Positions 46,240-62,363 of a stretch of 64,000 nt of DNA are shown here, piece by piece (position 1 is the stretch's first letter; every line of letters starts with the position of its first letter). Origin of the DNA: an uncultured bacterium. Lineage in GTDB: Bacteria > Babelota > Babeliae > Babelales > Vermiphilaceae. Below the pieces are notes generated by a model. It was not told the DNA's origin. It saw only the letters and a program-made list of their open reading frames with translations, and did not search any database. Location: contig OY968764.1 in assembly GCA_963695335.1 (NCBI GenBank), positions 448,001 through 512,000 of the forward strand, in the 5' to 3' direction. The position numbers were made by a program, and so were the translations under genes.

Positions 46240-46317
46240 GTCCCTATCGTCTAGCCTGGTCTAGGACATCGCCCTTTCACGGCGAAAACAGGGGTTCAAA
46301 TCCCCTTGGGGATGCCA
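46240..46317 (+). tRNA. tRNA-Glu (TTC), integration target
   Basis: Cloverleaf, TCGCC-CTTTCAC-GGCGA anticodon arm, ends GGGGATGCCA. Confidence 0.96.
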
Positions 46318-47766
46318 TTGTATACAATCGAACGAATCTGCGATTAAATCGAATGGCGAAACAAGCTCCCAATGAACATTTTCACCACTTATCTTCAAGT
46401 TCGATAATACGGTTTTGATTAAAAGCCGTTTTTGCTGAACTTCTGAACTTATAAAAATATCATATGCTCTGTCTGCAAGCTTAAGCAGCATCTGTGCGGT
46501 AATATAGTAATTTGTCTCTGCTTCTTGAAGTTGCTCTAAACGAATGGCAATATCAGTTGCTTTGTCTTTGAGTGATGTGAAGAATTTGTCATAGTAGGCG
46601 TCAGTAATACTCCCTTTCAGTTTATCCATATAAAGATTATCCATCATCGTGGCAAGTGTGCTTTGTTCTTTTAATAACTTTTCATTTTCTTGTTTGTGGA
46701 ATTCAACTTTGTTTTTATGCACTTCAGTGAGAACATCCATCGTGTCTTGGAGAATGTTTTTTGGCATTTGTAGGCGTGCAAAGAGTTTGCTGATGCTTGC
46801 AGTAATTGTTTCTTCACGGAACCATGTTGCGCCATGTTTGCCTTTTGCTTGCGTGCAATGGTAATAAACATGGCCTTTTTGCCGTTCATGGGTTATTGCA
46901 AGACCGCAATCGCCGCAACGGATTAAACCGCGATATAAAATGTCTTCTTTGCCTTTGTAGCGTTGTAGGTTTTTTCCATTTCTTTTTCTAACTTCTTGTA
47001 CTTCCTGAAACAATGCTTGTGTAATGATGGGTGGATAATTATGAGGATATGATTTTCCATTCACGGTCATGATGCCGTAATAGAAGGTGTAATTGAACAT
47101 TTTATCAACATTGCTTGTGGACCATGCAAGGCCATAATCAGTGTTTATTTTTTTGCATAAGGTGGAAAAAGAAAATGCACCTGTTGCATACAATTCAAAT
47201 GCTTTGCGCACAACTTGTGAGCCAAATTCATCAACAATAATTGTTGTTTTGTCGCTACCTAATGAAATGTTTTTATACCCATAAGGCGCTTTTGCAGGCC
47301 ATTCACCTTTGCGTAACTTTTGTTCAATGGCACGTTTAACATTATCACTGATTGCATCGGAATAATATTTTGCTAACCCAAGGCTGATGCCAAATTGGAA
47401 CTTTTCAACAGCAGAAATATTACTGTTGATGATTTGCCCGTCGGAAATAAAATGTAATTCAAGTTGATCTCTGAGGGCTTTTTCATAAAGGGTGGAGATG
47501 CGTTTATCAAAGGTGTTGCGTGATAGTCTATCTACTTTATCGCAGCAGATAACAACTTTTTCTTTTTGATTGAGTGCATAATCAATAATTGCATCAAATT
47601 CAGAGCGGCTATTGGTATAAGCACTTTCATCAAAGCTGCAAGTGCGGAGTATACTAAAGCCTTTGTTGCGACAATATTGTTCAAGGCGACTTATCTGGGC
47701 AGGGAGTGAATTACCAGCTTCTTTTTGTTCTTCTGTGCTGACACGAGCTATCAGAATAGCTTTCAT
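46261..47766 (-). CDS. Large serine recombinase; last 18 codons are antisense to tRNA-Glu
   Basis: ARVSTEEQ catalytic Ser, DRLSR, APYGY, Zn ribbon CGDC...YYHC, coiled coil. Confidence 0.93.
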   Translation of the reverse strand: MKAILIARVSTEEQKEAGNSLPAQISRLEQYCRNKGFSILRTCSFDESAYTNSRSEFDAIIDYALNQKEKVVICCDKVDRLSRNTFDKRISTLYEKALRDQLELHFISDGQIINSNISAVEKFQFGISLGLAKYYSDAISDNVKRAIEQKLRKGEWPAKAPYGYKNISLGSDKTTIIVDEFGSQVVRKAFELYATGAFSFSTLCKKINTDYGLAWSTSNVDKMFNYTFYYGIMTVNGKSYPHNYPPIITQALFQEVQEVRKRNGKNLQRYKGKEDILYRGLIRCGDCGLAITHERQKGHVYYHCTQAKGKHGATWFREETITASISKLFARLQMPKNILQDTMDVLTEVHKNKVEFHKQENEKLLKEQSTLATMMDNLYMDKLKGSITDAYYDKFFTSLKDKATDIAIRLEQLQEAETNYYITAQMLLKLADRAYDIFISSEVQQKRLLIKTVLSNLKISGENVHWELVSPFDLIADSFDCIQWHPQGDLNPCFRRERAMS

Positions 47767-48008
47767 GGGATAAATCCTTTTGTTTATGGATATTTCGTAG
47801 ATTTGTCGATGATAGTGTAACAGAAGAAATGAGGATTGTTATTAGTATTATAATTGGAGCTTCAAGATGATAATAAATATAAACAACAAGATATGATGAA
47901 TATAACTTAATATATTTAATTATATTTTTATGTATTAAATTTACTTAATTACATTATTATGGCATTCTTTGTGTGCATTACAAAATACATAACAAAAAAG
48001 GTGCCCTC

Positions 48009-49196
48009 ATGAAAAATTCTCATCTAATTCTCACCCTATGTGCATTAAGCACATTGATATCTCACTCAATGCAACTTACTCTCAAAGCAAATCCTCACAA
48101 ACTTAAACAGATAAGATACATTACATCACAAAAGGAATCACAAACAACACCCACCAAGATAAAGAAACAAAAAAATAATCAATATAATAATTGTTGTATT
48201 ATTGAAGGAAAAGAACGAGTAAAAGACCTTGTGGTACAGACTTCAAATGCATTGCAATCACGCCTTAAGGAATTACAAACAACATTCACCAAGACAAAGA
48301 AACGAAACAGCAGTCAATGCAATAATTGTTGTATTGTTGAAAAAAAAGAGCAAATTAAAGATCTTGTGGTATATACTTCAAATTCATTGCAATCATGTTT
48401 TCCTACATATAACTCCAAATACGATTCCAAAGTTTTTGTTGAAGATTATGGTTGTCAAAGTTTACATATTGTATTCGGTATGACCCATGCTTGTTTTGCC
48501 GTTGCGACGCTTAACCCTATTGGCTTGATTCCAATTATTACGAATGCTGTAGCAATAAAATGTATTAAGTTAGATAGGGATCTTATTAATTCAGTAGAAC
48601 GACCTCAGTTAGCAACAGATTTGATATCTTATTTGAATGCGATTAATCGTGAGGGTTATCTTTCTATTCATAGGCTTTTTATCAGAAGAGATTGTATAGA
48701 AAATGAGATAAGAAATCATAAAAAAGTTAATACACAAACGCTTTCATCCCTTGATTTAAAAAACGCATTAAATAATTATAATGTAAAACTTATTGAGTTA
48801 GAAAAGTCAGAAGACATAATAAATAGTGAAATTCTTGAACCAATCTTACCTATTTTGAATAAGTATGAAAATGTAGATATTGAAAAATGTTTAACATATA
48901 CAGATACACTAAAGAGAACTGCGGCATTTAAAAGACGTTTACTTGTTGGTGGAAGTTTGGCTATTTATCTCTCCACTTTGGGTATCGTTGTGGATGGCAC
49001 TGACAATGTATTAATTGCATTCATAGCTACGTTATCTATGCTTGATTTAATAGGAACACCTTTAATAATGGATAATGATTTATCAGATAAGATGAATATT
49101 ATTTCGAATTGCCTAAAAATCTATAAAAATCATTTGGCAACAATACAAAACAATGCTTTTGTAAAAACATTAGAAAATAAAAAAAATATTGAGTAA
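48009..49196 (+). CDS. Secreted cargo protein with a 45-aa internal duplication and hydrophobic segments
   Basis: Signal peptide ending SHS-MQL; 135-bp tandem repeat starting at 48132 and 48267. Confidence 0.72.
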   Translation: MKNSHLILTLCALSTLISHSMQLTLKANPHKLKQIRYITSQKESQTTPTKIKKQKNNQYNNCCIIEGKERVKDLVVQTSNALQSRLKELQTTFTKTKKRNSSQCNNCCIVEKKEQIKDLVVYTSNSLQSCFPTYNSKYDSKVFVEDYGCQSLHIVFGMTHACFAVATLNPIGLIPIITNAVAIKCIKLDRDLINSVERPQLATDLISYLNAINREGYLSIHRLFIRRDCIENEIRNHKKVNTQTLSSLDLKNALNNYNVKLIELEKSEDIINSEILEPILPILNKYENVDIEKCLTYTDTLKRTAAFKRRLLVGGSLAIYLSTLGIVVDGTDNVLIAFIATLSMLDLIGTPLIMDNDLSDKMNIISNCLKIYKNHLATIQNNAFVKTLENKKNIE

Positions 49197-49276
49197 TGCC
49201 GAAAAATAATAGTGGTTAAACAATTAAGGGTTATTGCAGATTATTGCATAGCCCTTAATCATTGTTCAGTAACTTA

Positions 49277-50434
49277 TCAAATTTCTTTTGTGATAGGTTC
49301 AAATTTTTCTAAGCAATCCCTAATCACCTTAAATGAATTTGATGATATGGGTTGTTGAGTAATCGTAGTGTTTTTCATATCAGCAATTAAGCGGTACCAG
49401 CTACGTTTATTGTGTGCACCAAGCATAGTGCGTAGTTCACGAATGCTTATTTGATCCAATGCCAATTTCATTCCATAAAGCTGCAAAATACGGCGAGGGC
49501 TGAGGGTAGGATTATTAAAAATAAGAGCAACAAGAAGTTGTTTTGTGTTATTTGTTTTGAAATCCAACAACGGTGGGCGCATGCGTTCAATTTCATCAAG
49601 ATAATGCAGGAGTACTTTGCGTGCAATGTTTGTTTTGAAGAGTCCTTTAAAGGTCAGTTGAGCTTTAATATTCAGCATCTTTAAAATCTGTTGGATCTTG
49701 CGCCGATTATTCAAGCGTGCTTCCATGCGTAAAACTTCAAACATTTTTTTATTATGCAATTCATCGTAGAGGTGCAATTGAATTGCGTTATCTTTTTCTA
49801 ATGATCGTTTATCACTTTTTTTTGCATATTCAAGATCACGAATTTTATCATAAAAAACTAATTCATAAGAGTTACTATGCCATTTGTAGCTGTGGCCTTT
49901 ATTGCGGTAATCAGTTTGATTGATATCAAGAGAGAGTTTGATATTTGCTTGTTCAATTTTGCTGATGTAATGATACGGAATAGAACCATCAGTGAGTGGG
50001 ATATTTTTTGAAAAATGAATGCCGGAAACGGGTGCATTGATCAAATTTTCAATATCAGTTGCAACTCCCATGGTGTGTAATGTTGTGCATAATTTTTGTA
50101 CAAGATCAGGAAATTGTTTTTGTGTTAGTTCTTCAAAGTTGTTACCAAATAATAGTTTTGGCAATGATAGTTCAATTTTAAGCAACGTTTTTGGTGTTGA
50201 GAGTGGTGAGGGCCGTCTTAAAAGGGATAGACGAGGTTTATAATAACCTGTAGCTAATTCTTTTTTTGTCGGGTTTTGTTTGGAAGAAATGCCGCGCAAA
50301 GCATAGGTTTTATCGTTGATCTCGGTCTTCGAAGCTTTAGCGAAGTAGACCCATCGCGCAGAAGGCGTAAATAAATCAGGATTAGTAATTTCAAACAAGT
50401 CTTGCGTAAGGAGTAAAACGATCGTATCTATCAT
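49277..50434 (-). CDS. Putative phage/plasmid replication initiator (gene II/X, CRI-like)
   Basis: MIDTI start, IELSLPKLLFGNN, FYDK, LRMEARL motifs; family assigned from recalled motifs. Confidence 0.7.
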   Translation of the reverse strand: MIDTIVLLLTQDLFEITNPDLFTPSARWVYFAKASKTEINDKTYALRGISSKQNPTKKELATGYYKPRLSLLRRPSPLSTPKTLLKIELSLPKLLFGNNFEELTQKQFPDLVQKLCTTLHTMGVATDIENLINAPVSGIHFSKNIPLTDGSIPYHYISKIEQANIKLSLDINQTDYRNKGHSYKWHSNSYELVFYDKIRDLEYAKKSDKRSLEKDNAIQLHLYDELHNKKMFEVLRMEARLNNRRKIQQILKMLNIKAQLTFKGLFKTNIARKVLLHYLDEIERMRPPLLDFKTNNTKQLLVALIFNNPTLSPRRILQLYGMKLALDQISIRELRTMLGAHNKRSWYRLIADMKNTTITQQPISSNSFKVIRDCLEKFEPITKEI

Positions 50435-50804
50435 TGCAATATCCCATGATGAAATCAATTATATTGCACGTAAGGATACGGGTAAATGCTTTGAAAAACA
50501 AGTCCCGCAGAGCGGTTCTTGATGAATTACTCATTGCGGGATATTTGATGTGGCAAGGCTTGCCCTTCATAGCTTTAGCGGAGTAGGGTTGGTGTTTTAT
50601 GGGCCTGTGGAAGCCGCAGCACCCAACTTCGCAAAAGCTTTGAGACTCAGCTTTTTTTGCTTTTGCCTTTTTTGGTGAACGTCTTTTATTTGCTGCACTT
50701 GTTTGCAGATTCACTTCTATAAGTAATGTGAATAAGTTTGCAACACGTGTTTTTTCTTCAACTGTTAAGACTCTAACAGATTTTATTGGTCGTAATCGAG
50801 CCAT
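50391..50804 (-). CDS. Small basic hypothetical protein upstream of rep
   Basis: Helical N-terminus EEKTRVANLFTLLIEVN; C-terminal half crosses hairpins and may be non-coding. Confidence 0.45.
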   Translation of the reverse strand: MARLRPIKSVRVLTVEEKTRVANLFTLLIEVNLQTSAANKRRSPKKAKAKKAESQSFCEVGCCGFHRPIKHQPYSAKAMKGKPCHIKYPAMSNSSRTALRDLFFKAFTRILTCNIIDFIMGYCNDRYDRFTPYARLV

Positions 50805-51071
50805 ATAATACTCTCTATAATAAATAATGAAAATTATTTTGTTCGTAGTATGGCGTAAAATTACTGTGACAAGTTTTTTAGATTAATTGGGAACTGAGAC
50901 AGGAATTGTACGCCATAGTCATGATCTGCGTGAGATCACGTTCAATATCTATAATTGCGTACATGGTATTCCTTCCGTGGCCTTCGAAGCTTTATGCGTA
51001 GTAGGCAAAAAAATGATGCTATCATTACAACGATTGCTGCAATGATAGCATATAGTGCGAATAATGCAAAT

Positions 51072-51401
51072 TTATTTTCTGCTTGGTACAGGAATCTCAA
51101 GCGGGATGTATTGGCCGTGAAGTTCAACCATGATTTTTTTGGATCCAAGCCCTCTTAAGATTTTAAAGAAACTTTGCATACTAAAATCTGTTTTGCTTCC
51201 TGATCGCATTGCTTGCACAATAGTCGGAGATACTCCTGCCATTTTTGCAAGTTTTCTTACGGATATATTGTCTTTTGCCATAGCAGCAAGAATCAATTCA
51301 GACAAAAGAAGTTCTTTATATTCTTCATCAAATTTTTTACGTTCTTCTGGGCTTAATGATTCAATAAGTTCATCTACAGTTGATTTTACTTTTTTATTCA
51401 T
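51072..51401 (-). CDS. Xre-HTH antitoxin
   Basis: ISVRKLAKMAGVSPTIVQ HTH; overlaps upstream toxin gene. Confidence 0.85.
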   Translation of the reverse strand: MNKKVKSTVDELIESLSPEERKKFDEEYKELLLSELILAAMAKDNISVRKLAKMAGVSPTIVQAMRSGSKTDFSMQSFFKILRGLGSKKIMVELHGQYIPLEIPVPSRK

Positions 51402-51777
51402 AATATGTTCCTTCTTTAACTCTTTTAATATAGTTCTCTTTTGCTCTTAAAGCTTTTTCTTTTTCTTTTATAGGCATTTTTGCTGATTTTTTTTCATAGG
51501 CATTGGTTATAATAACTTTTGATCCATCAAAGAAAAAACAGAAAAATCTGTCTGGTGAAGATTTAAATACATATATTTGGTCTCCTTCATAACGAAATTT
51601 TTCTAGATTAAAAACTTTTCCTGTGTTTCCAAGTAATAAAAAAAGGCGTGCGAGTTTCTTTTGACGATCATCAGGTAAATTTTTGAAATGAGCTAAAGGT
51701 TCACTTTTTCCCTTATCATTAAAATACCATTCAATGATATATTCTTTACCTTCACATGCTACAATCTTTTTCTTCAT
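51394..51777 (-). CDS. RelE/ParE (Gp49-like) toxin
   Basis: IYVFKSSPDRFFCFF...IITNAYEKKS..MP.KEKEKA. Confidence 0.85.
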   Translation of the reverse strand: MKKKIVACEGKEYIIEWYFNDKGKSEPLAHFKNLPDDRQKKLARLFLLLGNTGKVFNLEKFRYEGDQIYVFKSSPDRFFCFFFDGSKVIITNAYEKKSAKMPIKEKEKALRAKENYIKRVKEGTYYE

Positions 51778-51824
51778 TAAGCACTCGATTTTTTTATGGG
51801 TATTACTTTTTATTCATTATTAAA

Positions 51825-51844
51825 TGTATCATAAAAATGATACA
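51825..51844. promoter_or_regulatory. Probable TA operator palindrome
   Basis: TGTATCAT-AAAA-ATGATACA just upstream of the toxin start. Confidence 0.65.
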
Positions 51845-51877
51845 AGCACAAGGATGATTATAATTTTGCACCTTCGT

Positions 51878-51976
51878 TCATTGTATATTTAACTCCGCAA
51901 ATAGCGTCTGTATCATGCTTAATGAGTATTTTATAGGGGCTGTTTGGTTCAGGAGAGCATGGTGAAGGGGATGCCA
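51878..51976 (-). other. attR with the native recombinase C-terminal tail
   Basis: In the recombinase frame from the shared WHP: WHPLHHALLNQTAPIKYSLSMIQTLFAELNIQ*. Confidence 0.8.
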
Positions 51977-52030: not shown

Positions 52031-52277
52031 TTAAAAATTAAAAGAGCTGTTTTAACAACGGCTCTTTTTTTTTTGTTTTAAATCGATCTATTCGTTACTT
52101 TTTATGTTTTGACCTATAAAATTCTATTGTGAAATATTGTTAAATTATAAAAATATTTATAAAACCATTGTTTTCTACCCCCCCCCATCTGATATTGTTA
52201 TAATTGAAATAAATATTGTTAGTTTTTCAAAAAAGGAGAGTTTTCATGAAGAAGTTATGTTTATTGTCAGGAATGAT
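52031..52277 (+). repeat. About 250-bp direct repeat, copy 1 (terminator, promoter, RBS, gene start)
   Basis: Aligns with 55220-55462; contains a C9 tract. Confidence 0.85.
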
Positions 52278-52824
52278 GGTTTTTGTTGTGGCAGGTGTTA
52301 ATGCGGCACAAAACTTGACAGATGAACAACGTCAAAAATTGGAACAAGTGCAATGGGGAAAAATTAGACAACAACACGAATTGGCACGTCCTGCAACCTA
52401 TAAGATGTTAGATCCATTAGTACAGCAAAGCAACTGGCCTGCTGTTTTTCATATTCTTGATCAAATGCAAGGGGTTATAAGTGTTAATGAGTATCGATAC
52501 CATGGGGATACACTGCTTACTTTCGCGGTAGGTACAAAAAATATTTCAGCAGCAAAAACATTACTTGAAAAATATAAAGCTAATCCTAATGTAACATCTT
52601 TATCATTTTCAGGTCTTGGATTGTCACCATTGATGCAGGCTTGTATAACGGGAGACCTTGCCATGGTTAAATTATTACTTAGCTATAAAGCTAATCCTTT
52701 TTTAATGAGATCAGGAGAGGGAATAACACCAGGAAGTACCGCGTTGTTCTATGCTAAATATTATAACTATCCTGAAATTGTAAAATTGTTGGAAAAATAT
52801 ACACGTCCTGCAAAAGATGCATAA
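52246..52824 (+). CDS. Secreted ankyrin-repeat protein
   Basis: Signal peptide; GDTLLTFAV, GLSPLMQAC, GSTALFYA. Confidence 0.85.
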   Translation: MKKLCLLSGMMVFVVAGVNAAQNLTDEQRQKLEQVQWGKIRQQHELARPATYKMLDPLVQQSNWPAVFHILDQMQGVISVNEYRYHGDTLLTFAVGTKNISAAKTLLEKYKANPNVTSLSFSGLGLSPLMQACITGDLAMVKLLLSYKANPFLMRSGEGITPGSTALFYAKYYNYPEIVKLLEKYTRPAKDA

Positions 52825-52839
52825 ATTATAAAAATAAAT

Positions 52840-53026
52840 GAGATCCCTTCTCTTGTTGTAGTTTTAAATTCTTCTAAACAATCTTTAATAATTTTAAACG
52901 AATTAGATGGCATGGGTTGTTGGGGAATGCTAGCATCTTTTATGTCAGCAATTAAGCGATACCAGCTGCGTTTATTGTAAGCACCAAACATGGTACGTAA
53001 TTCTCAGATGCTTATTGTTCCAATGC
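52840..53026 (-). pseudogene. 3' remnant of a second rep gene
   Basis: GAYNKRSWYRLIADIK...SNSFKIIKDCLEEF matches the C-terminus of 49277-50434. Confidence 0.85.
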
Positions 53027-53289
53027 TATTTATGTTTTGCTTCAAGTTTTAATTGTAATCCCATGGCATTAATAATTGTACGAAAATCATGCCAACGTAG
53101 ATTCTTTTTAGAAAGCATTTTATAGATGTTTTGGTTGTCTACATTTTGTGCGTTAAGAACATGCTTTAAGGCAAGACGAATAGTTTCTTGATTTTCATCC
53201 ATAAGAGTAGCATTAAGGCATGCAAGTGCTTCTTCAGGATCTTGGAGTGCTTTGAGTAAACTTTCTTCGTGATCGATTGTTCTTTTCAT
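53026..53289 (-). CDS. Orphan addiction-module antidote (HTH), apparently internally shortened
   Basis: LQDPEEALACLN...LALKHV...NIYKMLS...IINAMGLQL; ATGA overlap with upstream gene. Confidence 0.75.
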   Translation of the reverse strand: MKRTIDHEESLLKALQDPEEALACLNATLMDENQETIRLALKHVLNAQNVDNQNIYKMLSKKNLRWHDFRTIINAMGLQLKLEAKHK

Positions 53290-53711
53290 TTTTCTTGTGT
53301 ATTTAAAGCATTATATTTTTGAAGAGCTAACTTTTTAATTTCTGCAATTTCATCTTCAGTAAAACGTTCTTTGAGATATCTTTGGAAAGTTTTTCTGTTC
53401 AGAGTTTTTTTTGCTATGACCATTTCAATAGCAGTGAGTTCAACTTCTTCTAAAATACCTCGATCTTTTAAAAAATCATCAAAGTTAGAGCCAATATACT
53501 TATTTTTTGTCATTATATTTTGTATCTTTTGTGATTGGATAATAGTTGGAGATACTTTTGCTATTTTTGCGAGTTTTTTTACTGATACATTATCTTTGGC
53601 TATAGCAGCAAGAATTAACTCGGATAATGCGAATATTCTATATTCTTCATTAAATTTTTTGCATTCTTCTGGACTCAATGATTCGATGAATGTATCAAAT
53701 GTTGATTTCAT
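53286..53711 (-). CDS. Chimeric protein of three antitoxin N-terminal segments
   Basis: Residues 2-59 match antitoxin 51072-51401; middle GSNFDDFL..GILEEV; last part resembles the N-terminus of 53708-54013. Confidence 0.75.
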   Translation of the reverse strand: MKSTFDTFIESLSPEECKKFNEEYRIFALSELILAAIAKDNVSVKKLAKIAKVSPTIIQSQKIQNIMTKNKYIGSNFDDFLKDRGILEEVELTAIEMVIAKKTLNRKTFQRYLKERFTEDEIAEIKKLALQKYNALNTQEK

Positions 53712-54013
53712 TTTTTGAAGATATCTTTTGGCTCTTTATCCATAAGAGCTAGAAAGTGAGCAAAGCTTGCAAGTGTTAAGTTTGCTTGGCCACGTTGTAT
53801 TTTGGAGGCTTGAGATGGGCTTGTGGATAAGCGACGAACAACTTCGTTAAAACCAACCTTATTTTTTTTCATATATTCTGCCATAGTATCAGAAAGTATT
53901 TTTTGAATTGATCTGAGAATATCAACTTCAAGTTGTGCTTTGCGCTCAATTTCAGCAATTTGTTCTTTAGTGAGTCTTTTCTCTACGATGTCATAAAAGC
54001 TTTTTGTTTTCAT
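53708..54013 (-). CDS. Xre-HTH antitoxin
   Basis: VGFNEVVRRLSTSPSQASKIQRGQANLTL HTH; directly after the toxin gene. Confidence 0.82.
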   Translation of the reverse strand: MKTKSFYDIVEKRLTKEQIAEIERKAQLEVDILRSIQKILSDTMAEYMKKNKVGFNEVVRRLSTSPSQASKIQRGQANLTLASFAHFLALMDKEPKDIFKK

Positions 54014-54014
54014 A

Positions 54015-54338
54015 TTATTTTTCCTCTGATAAGCGTTTATATGCAGTTTTAATATCTTTTTCCTGTGACTTTTTATCACCAGCAGCAAGTAGAATAATTA
54101 ATTGATTTTCCTTAAAGCAATAATATAGTCGGTATCCAAATTGTCGTTCACGTAATTCAAAGAGTCCTTTACCTAATGCACGACTATGAGGAAGTTTTAA
54201 TTCATTGCCTAATTTTTCTAACATGCGTAATTCTTGGGAGATAGATTCAAATTGTTCAATGGTTAACTTATAGATCCATTTTTCAAGGGGGCTTTTTCCG
54301 CTTTCATTAACCCAATATTCTATATTCCATTTTTTCAA
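54015..54338 (-). CDS. RelE/ParE (HigB/Gp49-like) toxin
   Basis: PHSRALGKGLFELRE...YRLYY...LLAAGDKKSQEKDIKTA. Confidence 0.9.
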   Translation of the reverse strand: MKKWNIEYWVNESGKSPLEKWIYKLTIEQFESISQELRMLEKLGNELKLPHSRALGKGLFELRERQFGYRLYYCFKENQLIILLAAGDKKSQEKDIKTAYKRLSEEK

Positions 54339-54423
54339 AGCTTCACTCCTACAAATAATAGTACTACTATAAAAGATAGTATAATAAGCGATGTTATGTC
54401 AATGCTAAACTTAATAAGTTACT

Positions 54424-54546
54424 TTATATAATGGAGTTTGTTTGCTCATTCGTTAACCATATCTTAAATTCCGTAAAGAGCGTCTGCATCATGCTTAATG
54501 GGTACTTGAAGGGGGCTGTTTGGTTCAGGAGAACATGGTGAAAAGG
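54424..54546 (-). other. Second orphan recombinase tail (att arm) of a decayed sibling element
   Basis: PFHHVLLNQTAPFKYPLSMMQTLFTE..., 20/26 identical to the 51878-51976 tail. Confidence 0.75.
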
Positions 54547-55219: not shown

Positions 55220-55462
55220 TTAAAAATTAAAAGAGTCGTTTAAAACGGCTCTTTTTTTTGTTTTAAATCGATCCATTCGTCTTTTTCCATATTTTGACTA
55301 TAAAAATTCTATTGTAAAATATTGTAAAATTATAAAAATATTTATAAAACTATTGTTTTCTACCCCCCCCCCACCTGATATTGTTATAATTGAAATAAAT
55401 ATTGTTAATTCTCAAAAGAGGAGTATTTTTATGAAAAAGTTATGTTTACTATCAGGAATGAT
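55220..55462 (+). repeat. About 250-bp direct repeat, copy 2
   Basis: Aligns with 52031-52277; contains a C10 tract. Confidence 0.85.
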
Positions 55463-56048
55463 AGCTTTGGTTGCGGTTGCACATATTAATGGAGATGTTA
55501 CTTATCCTGGAAATTTAAAAGAAAAGCATATTCAGAGAATAGAAGATGTGCAAAGAGAGAAAATTAAACGTCAAAAACAGTTAGCACGTCCACCAATATA
55601 TAGAATGGTTGATGCTTTGATTAAAGAAGAATATGCATCGTGGCATTACGATGATAATGGACAATGGGTTGAAGCACCGGCAAAAATTGTTGTAGATTGG
55701 CCAGCCGTTTTTAGAATTTTAGATTCAATGCCTGGGGTTATCGATGTTAATGAATATGCAACTTATGAGAATCAGGATCCTTTACTTTGGGTTGCAGTAG
55801 AACAAAAAAATTTCTTAGCAGCTAAAACATTACTCGAAAAATATCATGCTGATCCTAATTTTGGCAAATGTACGGGAGAGCATGGAAAAAATGAGAAATG
55901 TAATATGAACGATTCTCTTTTGATGTTAGCGCGTGAAAAAGGAGATGTTCAAATGGGTATATTATTAACACAGCATGGCGCTCATCCGATTACGATGAAA
56001 CAAATAGGCATTGATAAAGGTTGGACTAATCCGAGTAACCGTGAATGA
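55431..56048 (+). CDS. Secreted ankyrin-like protein, paralog of 52246-52824
   Basis: Shared MKKLCLLSGM, WPAVF.ILD.M.GVI.VNEY, AAKTLLEKY.A.PN. Confidence 0.82.
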   Translation: MKKLCLLSGMIALVAVAHINGDVTYPGNLKEKHIQRIEDVQREKIKRQKQLARPPIYRMVDALIKEEYASWHYDDNGQWVEAPAKIVVDWPAVFRILDSMPGVIDVNEYATYENQDPLLWVAVEQKNFLAAKTLLEKYHADPNFGKCTGEHGKNEKCNMNDSLLMLAREKGDVQMGILLTQHGAHPITMKQIGIDKGWTNPSNRE

Positions 56049-56090
56049 TGTAGTTTGAAAAAGAAATTAAGACAAAGTAATTTTAGTTAG

Positions 56091-56127
56091 AATCCCTTTT
56101 TATGATAATTCATAAGAAGGGATTTTT
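56091..56127 (+). terminator. Intrinsic terminator
   Basis: AATCCCTTTTTATGA-TAAT-TCATAAGAAGGGATT followed by a T-run. Confidence 0.72.
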
Positions 56128-56275
56128 GCATTCTTCTGAACTTAATGACTCGATGAAGTTATCGAATGTTGATTTAGTTTTTTTATTCATACTACTATTG
56201 TATAGTTATTTTGTTATTTGCATAATTTTTGAAAAAAGAACTGATGAGTCATAAGAACAATCCAAGGAGGATAGT

Positions 56276-59863: not shown

Positions 59864-62363
59864 ATGTTCAAATTGCGGTATCGGTATTTGATTTTTTTAC
59901 TTTTTTATCATTCCTTGCAAGCATTAACAACGCTTAATGTAACATTAGATTCAGACAATAATCCGGGTGGCAGGTGAGATTGGTGATTTGAGATATGCTT
60001 GAATACAATGAATCAAGGTCTTAACTCAATACCCGATGATTATGCGATTGTTTTTGACTTTCCAATGACGATTCAACTCAATGGAATCTTGCCGATTATT
60101 AACAATTCCTCAAATCCTGTGAATATCACCATTGGTAATACAGGCTCAACTCCTACCGTTACAATTGATGGTAATAGTGGTGCTTACAGTGGATTTTTTA
60201 TCCCAACGGGAAATGTGACGATTCAAAACATGATCTTTCAAAACCTGAGCGCACAAGGTGGTAATGGTGGAGACGGAATTTCAGGCGGTGGTGGTGGAAT
60301 GGGTGCTGGAGGGGCCATTTACGCACCTCAATTCTTTTTAAATGGCTCAAATCCTTCAATCACTTTGATGAATGTATTGATAAATGAATGTTCTGCTGTT
60401 GGTGGAAATGGAGGAAGTTATATAGGTCTTTCTTCCACTGGTAATGAAGGTGGCGGAGGTGGCGGAGGTTTTAGCGGAAATGGTGGTTCTATTACTACCA
60501 CGGGAAGCACTGGAGGGGGTGGCGGAGGTGGCTTTGGTGGAGATGGTGGAGATGTTACTCTTTCGACCGATGATTTGGGGGGCGGCGGAGGTGGTGGCGG
60601 TGGAATAGGATCCCGCGCTACCATAGGCACACTCACGAATCTGGGCAACGGAGGCTCGGATCAGAATATCGGTTTGGATGGAAATGGTTATGGTCTTTCA
60701 ATTACTGCTGGTTCAGGTGCCGGAGGGAATTCTGGAGGGAACATGGCAGGAGGAGGCGGTGGCGGCACCACGGGAGGTGGCGGAGGGGGAAGTAATGGAT
60801 CTGATGGGTTTCAACCGCAAGGTAGTTTAGCACCAGGAGGCAGTGCTGTACCTTCTGGAGGCAATGGAGGAGACGGCGGTGGAGGAGGCGGCGGTGGCGT
60901 TGTTGTAACATCGTTTACAAATGGAGTAGATGGACAAGCAGGTAGTGGTGGCTATGGCGGCGGCGGCGGTGGTGGGGCTGGTACGGGTGCTTATGATGCT
61001 TCTTATACAGTACAAGGTGGATCTGGTGGAGTTGGCGGAGGTGGCGGTGGCGGAGGAGTGAATCAATCCGGTACGACGCCTGCATGAGGTGGTAATTCTC
61101 TTGGTGGAGGTGGCGGCGCAGGTGGTGGACCATCTAATGGTATCACTGCTTGGGTGGAAATGATATAGGAAATCTTGGTGGAGGATCAGGAGGAATGGGC
61201 GCAAATAACTATGGAGCAGGTTTTGGTGGTGGAGGCGGTGGCGGAGGAAGTGGTCTGGGCGGAGCTATATTTGTGGATAGCGGTTTGAATTTCACCATAC
61301 AAGCATTCTCTGGAATTCCAACCACGTTCAATACACCAAATAATACAACACAAGCAGGAACTCATGGAACTGGTGGCCCTGGAGCTCAAGATGGTCTAGA
61401 TGGATCAGCACTTGGGAATAGTATTTTCCTGCGCTCTGGATCTTCTTTAACATTCATGGCGCAAGATGTTGATGATCTTTTAACACTTGGTGATCAAGTT
61501 GCGTTTATTGATGATACAAGTTTTGGTGGGCAAGGAACGAGTGTCTTTGTAGGAGGAAATGGAACTGTTATTTACAATGGAACAACAGATTATCCAGGAA
61601 CCATTACTATCAACAATGCGAATTTCAAAGTGAATGGGTTGATCGATGCAGCATCTATTTTTGTCTGTAGAAACATTGGTTTTAGTGCGCAAAGAGGTAC
61701 TCTCAGTGGGAGTGGAACATTAACTGGAAATGTTTTTGTAAATTCCGGAACAATCTCTCCAGATACAGGGCAAGCACTCACGCTTGGAAGTTTGACTCTC
61801 AATTCAGCAGATCCAATTAACAACACTCTTGGAAGCCTTGTGCATATTGAAATTGATGCAAACAGAGGCACATCTTTATTGATGTTACCGGGCCTGCATC
61901 ATTAGCGGGTACATTAGAAATTGAATTAGACCCAAATGCTCAGCCTGGAACGTATACTATTCTGAATTCATCTGGTATTACAGGAACCTTTGATACCGTT
62001 ACATTTACAGGAACAGTTCCTAATTATACGCTTTCTTATCTGCCAGTTGGAAATCCTACCTTTGTGCAATTTGATTTCTTAGGTTACCCAAACCCTAATC
62101 CTTTGCATAAAAAGAAGTTCCGCGAAACGCTTGCAGCGTATCATCAAGCATATCTGTTTGAAAAGGTTGTTGCAGCTATTGGAAAACATGAAAATAAAGA
62201 TGAAAAACGTTTACGTAAAAAAGAAGCAAAACGGTTGGAACATTATAAGCAGCTTCATCCTTATAGTCACTATGTAAAAAAGCATTTCAAATGGCTCAAG
62301 AAGTTTAAGCATAAAGAAGTTCCGCATATTGTTCACTTGATTAAAAAAGGTGAAGCGGCATAA
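59864..62363 (+). pseudogene. Gly-rich autotransporter-passenger-like surface protein, multiply frameshifted
   Basis: Signal peptide at 59864; GGAIY and GLGGAIF motifs; poly-Gly; frame breaks near 59970-59998, 61083, 61150 and 61878. Confidence 0.75.

Follow-up and report, generated by a model that had tools for sequence, protein, structure and literature searches.

The 64,000-nucleotide (nt) stretch analysed here, called the window, covers positions 448,001 to 512,000 of the single 1.37-Mb contig OY968764.1 (assembly GCA_963695335.1) from an uncultured Vermiphilaceae bacterium of the phylum Babelota. Its minus strand carries X141, an open reading frame (ORF) of 141 amino acids (aa) in which the N-termini of three antitoxins from toxin-antitoxin (TA) systems are fused and no complete helix-turn-helix (HTH) domain is left. 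Judged from its substitution pattern, X141 is under purifying selection. We put at about two chances in three the reading that this protein is a conserved multi-specific anti-addiction antidote, each segment of which is predicted to silence a different RelE/Gp49-type toxin of mobile elements. The genes on which this argument rests are the following.

54015..54338, minus strand: T2, Gp49/RelE (Tad-like) toxin of 107 aa with a TTG start (PF05973, E 1.5e-14; TIGR02683, E 2e-14, below cut-off)
53708..54013, minus strand: A2, full-length cognate Xre-HTH antitoxin of 101 aa (HTH_19, E 0.0016); many relatives with full-length family members
53286..53711, minus strand: X141, the 141-aa poly-antitoxin with three fused antitoxin N-termini and no complete HTH
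53523..53708, minus strand: X141 segment 1, A1-family N-terminus with its end point inside the recognition helix
53406..53513, minus strand: X141 segment 2, H-family (HTH_37-type) N-terminus, 82% nt identity to L015 652-759
53289..53402, minus strand: X141 segment 3, A2-family N-terminus of a subtype differing from the adjacent A2
53026..53289, minus strand: O87, orphan HI1420-type antitoxin that lost 12 residues of the HTH region in frame
51394..51777, minus strand: T1, Gp49/HigB toxin of the neighbouring integrative element (PF05973, E 1.9e-8), candidate target of segment 1
51072..51401, minus strand: A1, full-length cognate antitoxin of T1 (HTH_3, E 5.4e-5)

T1-A1 and T2-A2 are the names used for the two pairs, and H, O, V and S designate further antitoxin families of relatives.

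Composition and conservation of X141

The ORF translations give the minus-strand order T2, A2, X141, O87, with ATGA overlaps at A2/X141 and X141/O87, as described in a first-pass annotation of the window; T2 and A2 lie 1 nt from each other. T2-A2 is organized like a type II HigBA/Tad-Ata pair, the RelE/Gp49 toxin gene lying directly 5' of the Xre-HTH antitoxin gene. The expression-related signals of the locus are the ATGA coupling and a consensus promoter match upstream of T2. That annotation took X141 for an intrinsic part of a one-toxin operon, which does not hold: the fusion is a separable module, free of any toxin at the metagenome locus L031 and located behind a different pair at L033.

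Segment families were assigned with profiles built from full-length genes of relatives. The three segments map to three distinct antitoxin families, so the ORF is indeed a concatemer. The translation of segment 1 is identical to A1 at 43/58 positions and stops within the HTH, exactly as first reported; its identity to the N-terminal region of the neighbouring A1 (23/32) is bettered by only one of 92 other full-length natives. Segment 2, which had been suspected to come from another Xre antitoxin family, is the N-terminus of an HTH_37-type (H) antitoxin family partnering Gp49 toxins (26/34 identical to a full-length member). Segment 3 had been compared with the N-terminus of the adjacent A2. 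The two are homologous, but segment 3 does not derive from A2, to which it is identical at 10/32 positions (rank 29 in a comparison with 32 full-length natives); another A2-family subtype reaches 21/31. In the tree, the third segments of the fusions form a fusion-only clade (support 100/99) nested within this foreign subtype. A duplication of the adjacent A2 is rejected on the basis of this identity and this position. X141 has the attributes of an orphan antitoxin: the fusion occurs without cognate toxin in L031, family searches found neither a full-length H-family gene nor an H-family pair in its own genome, and the subtype of segment 3 is foreign. Among the fusion proteins, P0002 and P0003 have near-identical segments 1 and 3 and differ at several positions of segment 2, in a manner that matches two native H subtypes; this difference possibly reflects segment exchange.

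X141 falls outside the canonical HigA/Xre antitoxins, as it has no complete HTH or C-terminal dimerisation region and only N-terminal models match it. Pfam and NCBIfam searches gave nothing meaningful, with no Pfam HTH match, and all its matches in the ESM Atlas are under 0.9. An assembly artefact is rejected since homologous fusions come from several sources and public contigs cross both the junction of segments 2 and 3 (over 190 nt with 1 mismatch) and the O87 deletion (over 254 nt, identical), although one of the runs (X1) may be from the same strain. The segment 1/2 junction is spanned by none of the public contigs listed and rests on the homologous fusion proteins. O87 lacks 12 HTH-region residues compared with its orthologues (the one in L031 matches PF21716, E 2.7e-13) and may be decaying in this genome.

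Of the 22 database matches (clusters), four extend over 96-99% of X141; they are 70-76% identical to it and have the same junctions. Between X141 and L031 the synonymous divergence (dS) is 0.59 and the ratio of non-synonymous to synonymous divergence (dN/dS) is 0.22 (Fisher p 8e-9), with 0.17, 0.23 and 0.23 for segments 1, 2 and 3; for comparison, T1 and its orthologue give 0.21. Five other pairs give 0.13-0.34 over segments 2 and 3. On the branch leading to this genome, the ratio of non-synonymous to synonymous changes (pN/pS) of segments 2 and 3 is 0.32 (p 0.013). The fusion is therefore neither unique nor unconstrained, contrary to what would be expected of deletion debris. Furthermore, full-length donors are an unlikely source of the constraint on segment 3, because its clade contains only fusions. 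At the three metagenome loci, L031 carries the whole fusion and an intact orphan HI1420 gene without the upstream toxin, L033 has segments 2 and 3 after an HI1419/HI1420 pair, and L032 has segments 2 and 3 as well.

Structural homologues indicate what the segments have kept. The T1 family matches Streptococcus pneumoniae HigB (6AF3_A, E 5.9e-7), the A1 family matches its HigA (6AF3_B, E 1.3e-7), and positions 2-91 of the H profile align to residues 1-89 of HigA (E 0.004). In this HigA, contacts with HigB are made by W10-S34, in the first two helices, the HTH is at 47-66 and dimerisation occurs by the C-terminal strand (PMC7984235). Segment 2 spans HigA residues 1-35, segment 1 spans the interface and stops in the recognition helix, and segment 3 is tied to this interface indirectly, by the profile homology of the A2 family to the other two antitoxin families, A1 and H (hhalign, 93%). 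A sequence search of the PDB gave no match for T2, the A2 family or P0174, a protein described below. By analogy, we infer that the helices kept in X141 form the toxin interface and that the lost part served DNA binding and dimerisation. N-terminal peptides of Vibrio cholerae HigA2 (residues 3-22) suffice for toxin neutralisation (PMC5416850); neutralisation by the fragments of X141 is predicted on this model.

Antitoxin mosaics and the parts they retain

A survey of 236 loci and 172 database proteins, with 9069 distinct ORFs and proteins in all, yielded 27 distinct proteins, of 16 architectures, that join at least two antitoxin N-termini. These include A2+A1+O, A2+A1+H, A2+H+A2, H+O, V+A1, O+A2 and A2+V; the X141 type accounts for 7/27, some of them near-copies. 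The segment trees contain 34-38 columns and many open forks, and the independent origin of the mosaics is argued from their differing segment orders. Segments other than the first start at model position 5 or before in 36/38 cases. In none of the 9069 is an antitoxin N-terminus followed by a fused piece of toxin or by nothing but a foreign HTH, and a toxin shares one ORF with a full-length A1 in two cases (L020 1378-2082 and L101 1804-2355). Among 7997 candidates for longer forms (322-2000 aa), the single match is an H N-terminus on an unrelated protein.

As a control for bias, 261 genomes of the phylum (those listed all from one order, nearly all of 0.5-2.1 Mb) were searched with full-length family profiles, giving 130, 123 and 57 rows, and partial matches were inspected. 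Excluded were frameshifted whole genes (G068, G222, G149, G075, G071, G238, G070, G085), contig-edge matches (G194:C57, two in G188, G066), middle pieces (G166, G247, G034, G094:465416, G073:C1 and G008:326660, the last of which follows a broken toxin and begins at position 11), one weak match (G104) and cross-matches to other HTH families. Remnants with only the N-terminus outnumber those with only the HTH by 17:1 for A1, 28:3 for A2 and 4:2 for H, that is 49:6 in total; three of the 49 are the segments of X141 itself, and in some A1 cases the recognition helix is still present and the last helix and strand are gone.

In Doc-partner antitoxins, toxin binding is through the C-terminus. The C-terminal half of such an antitoxin ends three mosaics (TIGR02609 positions 37/38/42-74, E 0.002-0.007, below cut-off). 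Likewise, the mosaic L219 joins an A2 N-terminus to the C-terminal tail of P0174, a TA-type protein of the ribbon-helix-helix (RHH) type (Atlas 0.95-0.96), and drops the RHH part. RelB, DinJ and YefM bind their toxins via the C-terminus (PMC5416850). The polarity of the kept parts thus follows function rather than the 5' end, as far as function is predicted from these sequences. The first-pass proposal that toxin-neutralising parts are kept and DNA-binding parts dropped recurs as a pattern across the phylum, for predicted toxin-binding parts. Its overall picture of an anti-addiction cassette survives in the distinct families, the conservation and the recurrence, and fails in the operon membership and in the source of segment 3.

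In A1 stubs ending at or before position 58, T8, E35 and A39 are each present in 46/46, and M41 is found in 25/46 versus 133/152 full-length members (p 5e-6), in a set that may contain contig-edge fragments. Other arrangements were observed in the same survey. In L201 (4252-4416; G008), an A2 antitoxin has its HTH deleted internally with both ends in frame and is followed by an HI1420 N-terminal stub. Five loci (L081 1282-2640 in G073, L043, L044, L150 and L230) carry full-length antitoxins from different families in runs of two or three, with at most one toxin. The genome that contains the window also has a stand-alone 60-aa A2-family N-terminal stub (G000:C1:394505-394687; L155 2005-2187), upstream of a gene that we take to be an rRNA methyltransferase, and a full-length HI1420 antitoxin after a toxin remnant, right before another rep 3' remnant (G000:C1:1066219-1066610; L157).

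Origin of the fusions and competing explanations

The surroundings of the locus contain one integrative element and remnants of others.

46308..51976, no strand assigned: neighbouring integrative element located at the 3' end of tRNA-Glu, with serine recombinase, cargo, putative rep gene and T1-A1 pair; 10-bp core at both ends
54441..54542, no strand assigned: degenerate right-end (attachment, att) arm that belonged to an older integrative element and lies 5' of T2, 82% identical to 51865-51966
54373..54402, minus strand: promoter-like site upstream of T2, a consensus match only (31 found vs 25.3 expected)
52848..53026, minus strand: 3' remnant of a putative replication (rep) gene, 79% nt identity to 49283-49462, no Pfam match, function proposed from position
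56123..56262, minus strand: second copy of a poly-antitoxin start (upstream region and first 22 codons), 77% nt identity to the L031 5' region and 87% over 61 nt to the X141 start

The final 10 bases of tRNA-Glu form the core of the neighbouring element and recur at its far end, and the empty junction is found in G002 and in one public contig. The right-end arm recurs before TA pairs in G002, G004, G010, L032 and, three times, G009. G009 has three att arms, and the pairs behind them belong to the A1, H and A2 families, in the segment order of X141, with a 74-aa A1 stub after them. Related elements insert at tRNA-Glu with different TA pairs at their ends. One public contig has the A2 end joined directly to the sequence following A1, the arrangement that an element lacking X141 should have. 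A dedicated capture recombinase was not found, the sole nearby recombinase being the integrase of the neighbouring element.

The fusions likely come from tandem tRNA-targeting elements collapsed by deletion. Elements each ending in a different TA pair would line up at tRNA-Glu; a deletion would then remove the HTH of one antitoxin together with cargo and the next toxin, and join the start of the next antitoxin in frame. Selection would retain products that neutralise toxin without promoter repression, and for this reason element addiction, that is killing on loss, would fail. Translation of X141 would be coupled to that of A2, and up to three toxin types could be bound. Segment 1 could plausibly disarm the neighbouring element, and the beneficiary of X141 may be the host or a rival element. 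More tentatively, and at slightly less than even odds, the lineage may repeatedly have built a modular antitoxin memory from the wreckage of integrative elements. It would string together minimal neutralising peptides, namely N-terminal helices from six or more HigA-type families and the C-terminal tails contributed by Doc-partner and RHH antitoxins, and its segments would record past invaders, swap specificity variants and immunise the cell.

Several observations weigh against an anti-addiction role. The exact three-part fusion occurs in one of the 261 genomes and is intact at one of the three metagenome loci, segment 1 being frameshifted in L032. On this genome's own branch, private changes in segment 1 are too scarce for a verdict (pN/pS 0.56, p 0.32), and those in O87 do not reveal significant constraint (0.71, p 0.28). 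Pattern scans revealed no relative in plasmids or viral contigs; the same kind of scan found none in a general genome contig set. The database proteins were gathered by an N-terminal query and may include contig-edge fragments. The pooled binomial value for 49:6 (p 2e-9) overstates the asymmetry because the genomes are related, and for the H family alone it is not significant (4:2, p 0.69). The PDB matches of the H family and the Doc-partner matches are weak, and the A2 family has none in the PDB. Moreover, L214 retains an entire Doc partner, and P0114 and L065 terminate in an intact HTH. Clear debris exists, such as the L202 stub with an internal stop and the L197 and L204 stubs after broken toxins, and N-termini are joined to unrelated domains in P0083, P0098, P0172 and L164.

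Such cases lend some weight to an unlikely but not negligible explanation in which the mosaics are deletion debris: toxins would have been lost first, antitoxin starts joined in frame by chance, and the constraint borrowed by recombination with working antitoxins. The segment order is that of the G009 array, the window is rich in remnants, many full-length antitoxins have no intact modelled toxin upstream (32/89 for A1, 12/31 for A2 and 10/24 for H), and segment 2 exists in two variants like the two native subtypes (with weak tree support). Borrowed constraint fits poorly with a dN/dS of 0.23 within the fusion-only segment 3 clade. In addition, frame and junctions are kept at 70-76% identity; both lineages stayed free of stops in 3.3% of 5000 neutral simulations. 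The bias of remnants towards N-termini, the C-terminal tails retained where DNA binding is N-terminal and the mosaics without toxin pieces also speak against debris.

The fragments could instead act as a safety buffer, an unregulated extra supply of neutralising activity directed at the cell's own toxins (T1, for example) and not at invaders. The second-best rank of the neighbouring A1 for segment 1, the frequent position of stubs directly after intact pairs (L036, L060, L027, L213) and the five RelE-type pairs of the genome would agree with this. We consider it quite unlikely, as no complete antitoxin gene of the segment 2 family was found in this genome, segment 3 is distant from the resident A2 and all resident toxins found (5/5) have a cognate antitoxin. 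A regulatory decoy, in which fragments bind toxin or compete with cognate antitoxins and so alter autoregulation or free the toxin without any protection, appears very unlikely. One argument for it comes from S. pneumoniae, where peptides mimicking the interface disrupted the HigBA complex, released toxicity and were bactericidal, HigA leaving the toxin active site uncovered (PMC7984235). Antitoxin fragments thus need not neutralise, which also counts against the anti-addiction reading. A further point for the decoy is that segment 1 retains more than the interface helices. Against a decoy, the V. cholerae HigA2 peptides, although from a different HigA type, neutralise alone (PMC5416850), stand-alone toxin-free stubs are common, and a toxin-releasing protein co-transcribed with a toxin would presumably be costly.

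Relation to known systems and other features of the window

Orphan antitoxins have been proposed to neutralise the toxins of incoming elements, a use whose generality remains to be shown (PMC7354431), and solo antitoxins are described in PMC2701414. Like X141, these are antitoxins without cognate toxin; they are single genes, whereas X141 fuses the predicted toxin-binding segments of three families and has no complete HTH. By analogy, X141 would work like these proposed anti-addiction antitoxins. T1 and T2 are Gp49 (Tad-family) toxins as in the Tad-Ata/Gp49 (COG4679)-Xre pairs (PMC2701414). The A1 and H families align to the HigA of S. pneumoniae HigBA (PDB 6AF3/6AF4; PMC7984235), with an N-terminal interface and the HTH and dimer strand downstream. 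Unlike both of these systems, X141 has no cognate toxin gene, complete HTH or dimer strand. In V. cholerae HigA2, synthetic peptides of the isolated N-terminal segment silence a RelE-type toxin (PMC5416850). A NadS/HigA2-like N-terminus is present in the related mosaics P0144, P0030 and L217 and absent from X141.

The acquired interbacterial defence (AID) and recombinase-associated AID (rAID) arrays of Bacteroidales likewise accumulate non-self immunity determinants on loci linked to mobile DNA (10.1101/471110). They consist of whole genes against type VI effectors, whereas X141 gathers fragments in one ORF against intracellular TA toxins. The X141 locus is not an array of the rAID type, its units being TA antitoxin fragments fused in one ORF. 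Single orphan antitoxin proteins encoded by phages reportedly counter DarTG. They share with X141 the idea of a toxin-free antitoxin directed against the TA system of another party, and X141 was not found in viral contigs. The passages on TA pairs in the Babela genome paper mention HicAB and MNT-HEPN only (PMC4378268). A literature search at the level of titles and abstract beginnings, with most subscription papers out of its reach and supplements not covered, found no description of fused or HTH-less poly-antitoxins.

Orphan antitoxins could be either anti-addiction tools or products of decay (PMC7354431). Mosaics of the X141 type separate these options better than is usual from sequence alone, since the predicted toxin-binding part is kept from either end of the parent and DNA binding is dropped. 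Furthermore, each segment names a candidate toxin, which makes the anti-addiction idea directly testable. If it is true, such mosaics would offer a natural route to multi-specific antitoxins, map minimal neutralising motifs for several unstudied toxin families and show small-genome bacteria to be in conflict with the integrative elements they carry.

Other features concern the neighbouring element. The serine recombinase ORF (46261-47766) crosses the tRNA-Glu gene of the opposite strand (46240-46317). The right-end arm (51865-51976) can be read, in L032 and at 54441-54542, as an alternative C-terminus, which suggests that integration may swap the recombinase tail. A perfect 7-bp inverted repeat upstream of T1 (51825-51844), also present in L032, is a candidate A1 operator. 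The 407-aa cargo gene (47973-49196) contains a 129-nt internal tandem duplication (83%) and matches no family. The putative rep gene (49277-50458) and a 137-aa ORF (50391-50804) match neither Pfam nor NCBIfam, and both are also present in a second element (G000:C1:206990-208406).

Elsewhere in the window, the second cassette-start copy (56085-56262) has a hairpin after it that recurs at other places in the genome. At this site and in L031, a -10-like box lies 6-7 nt before the ATG, which suggests leaderless translation. Ankyrin paralogues (52031-52291, 55220-55476, 52216-52824 and 55353-56048) alternate with element remnants and have a terminator-promoter block in common. Finally, a high-GC glycine-rich gene (59999-61905) is apparently divided into two ORFs, the split being at about 61087-61150.

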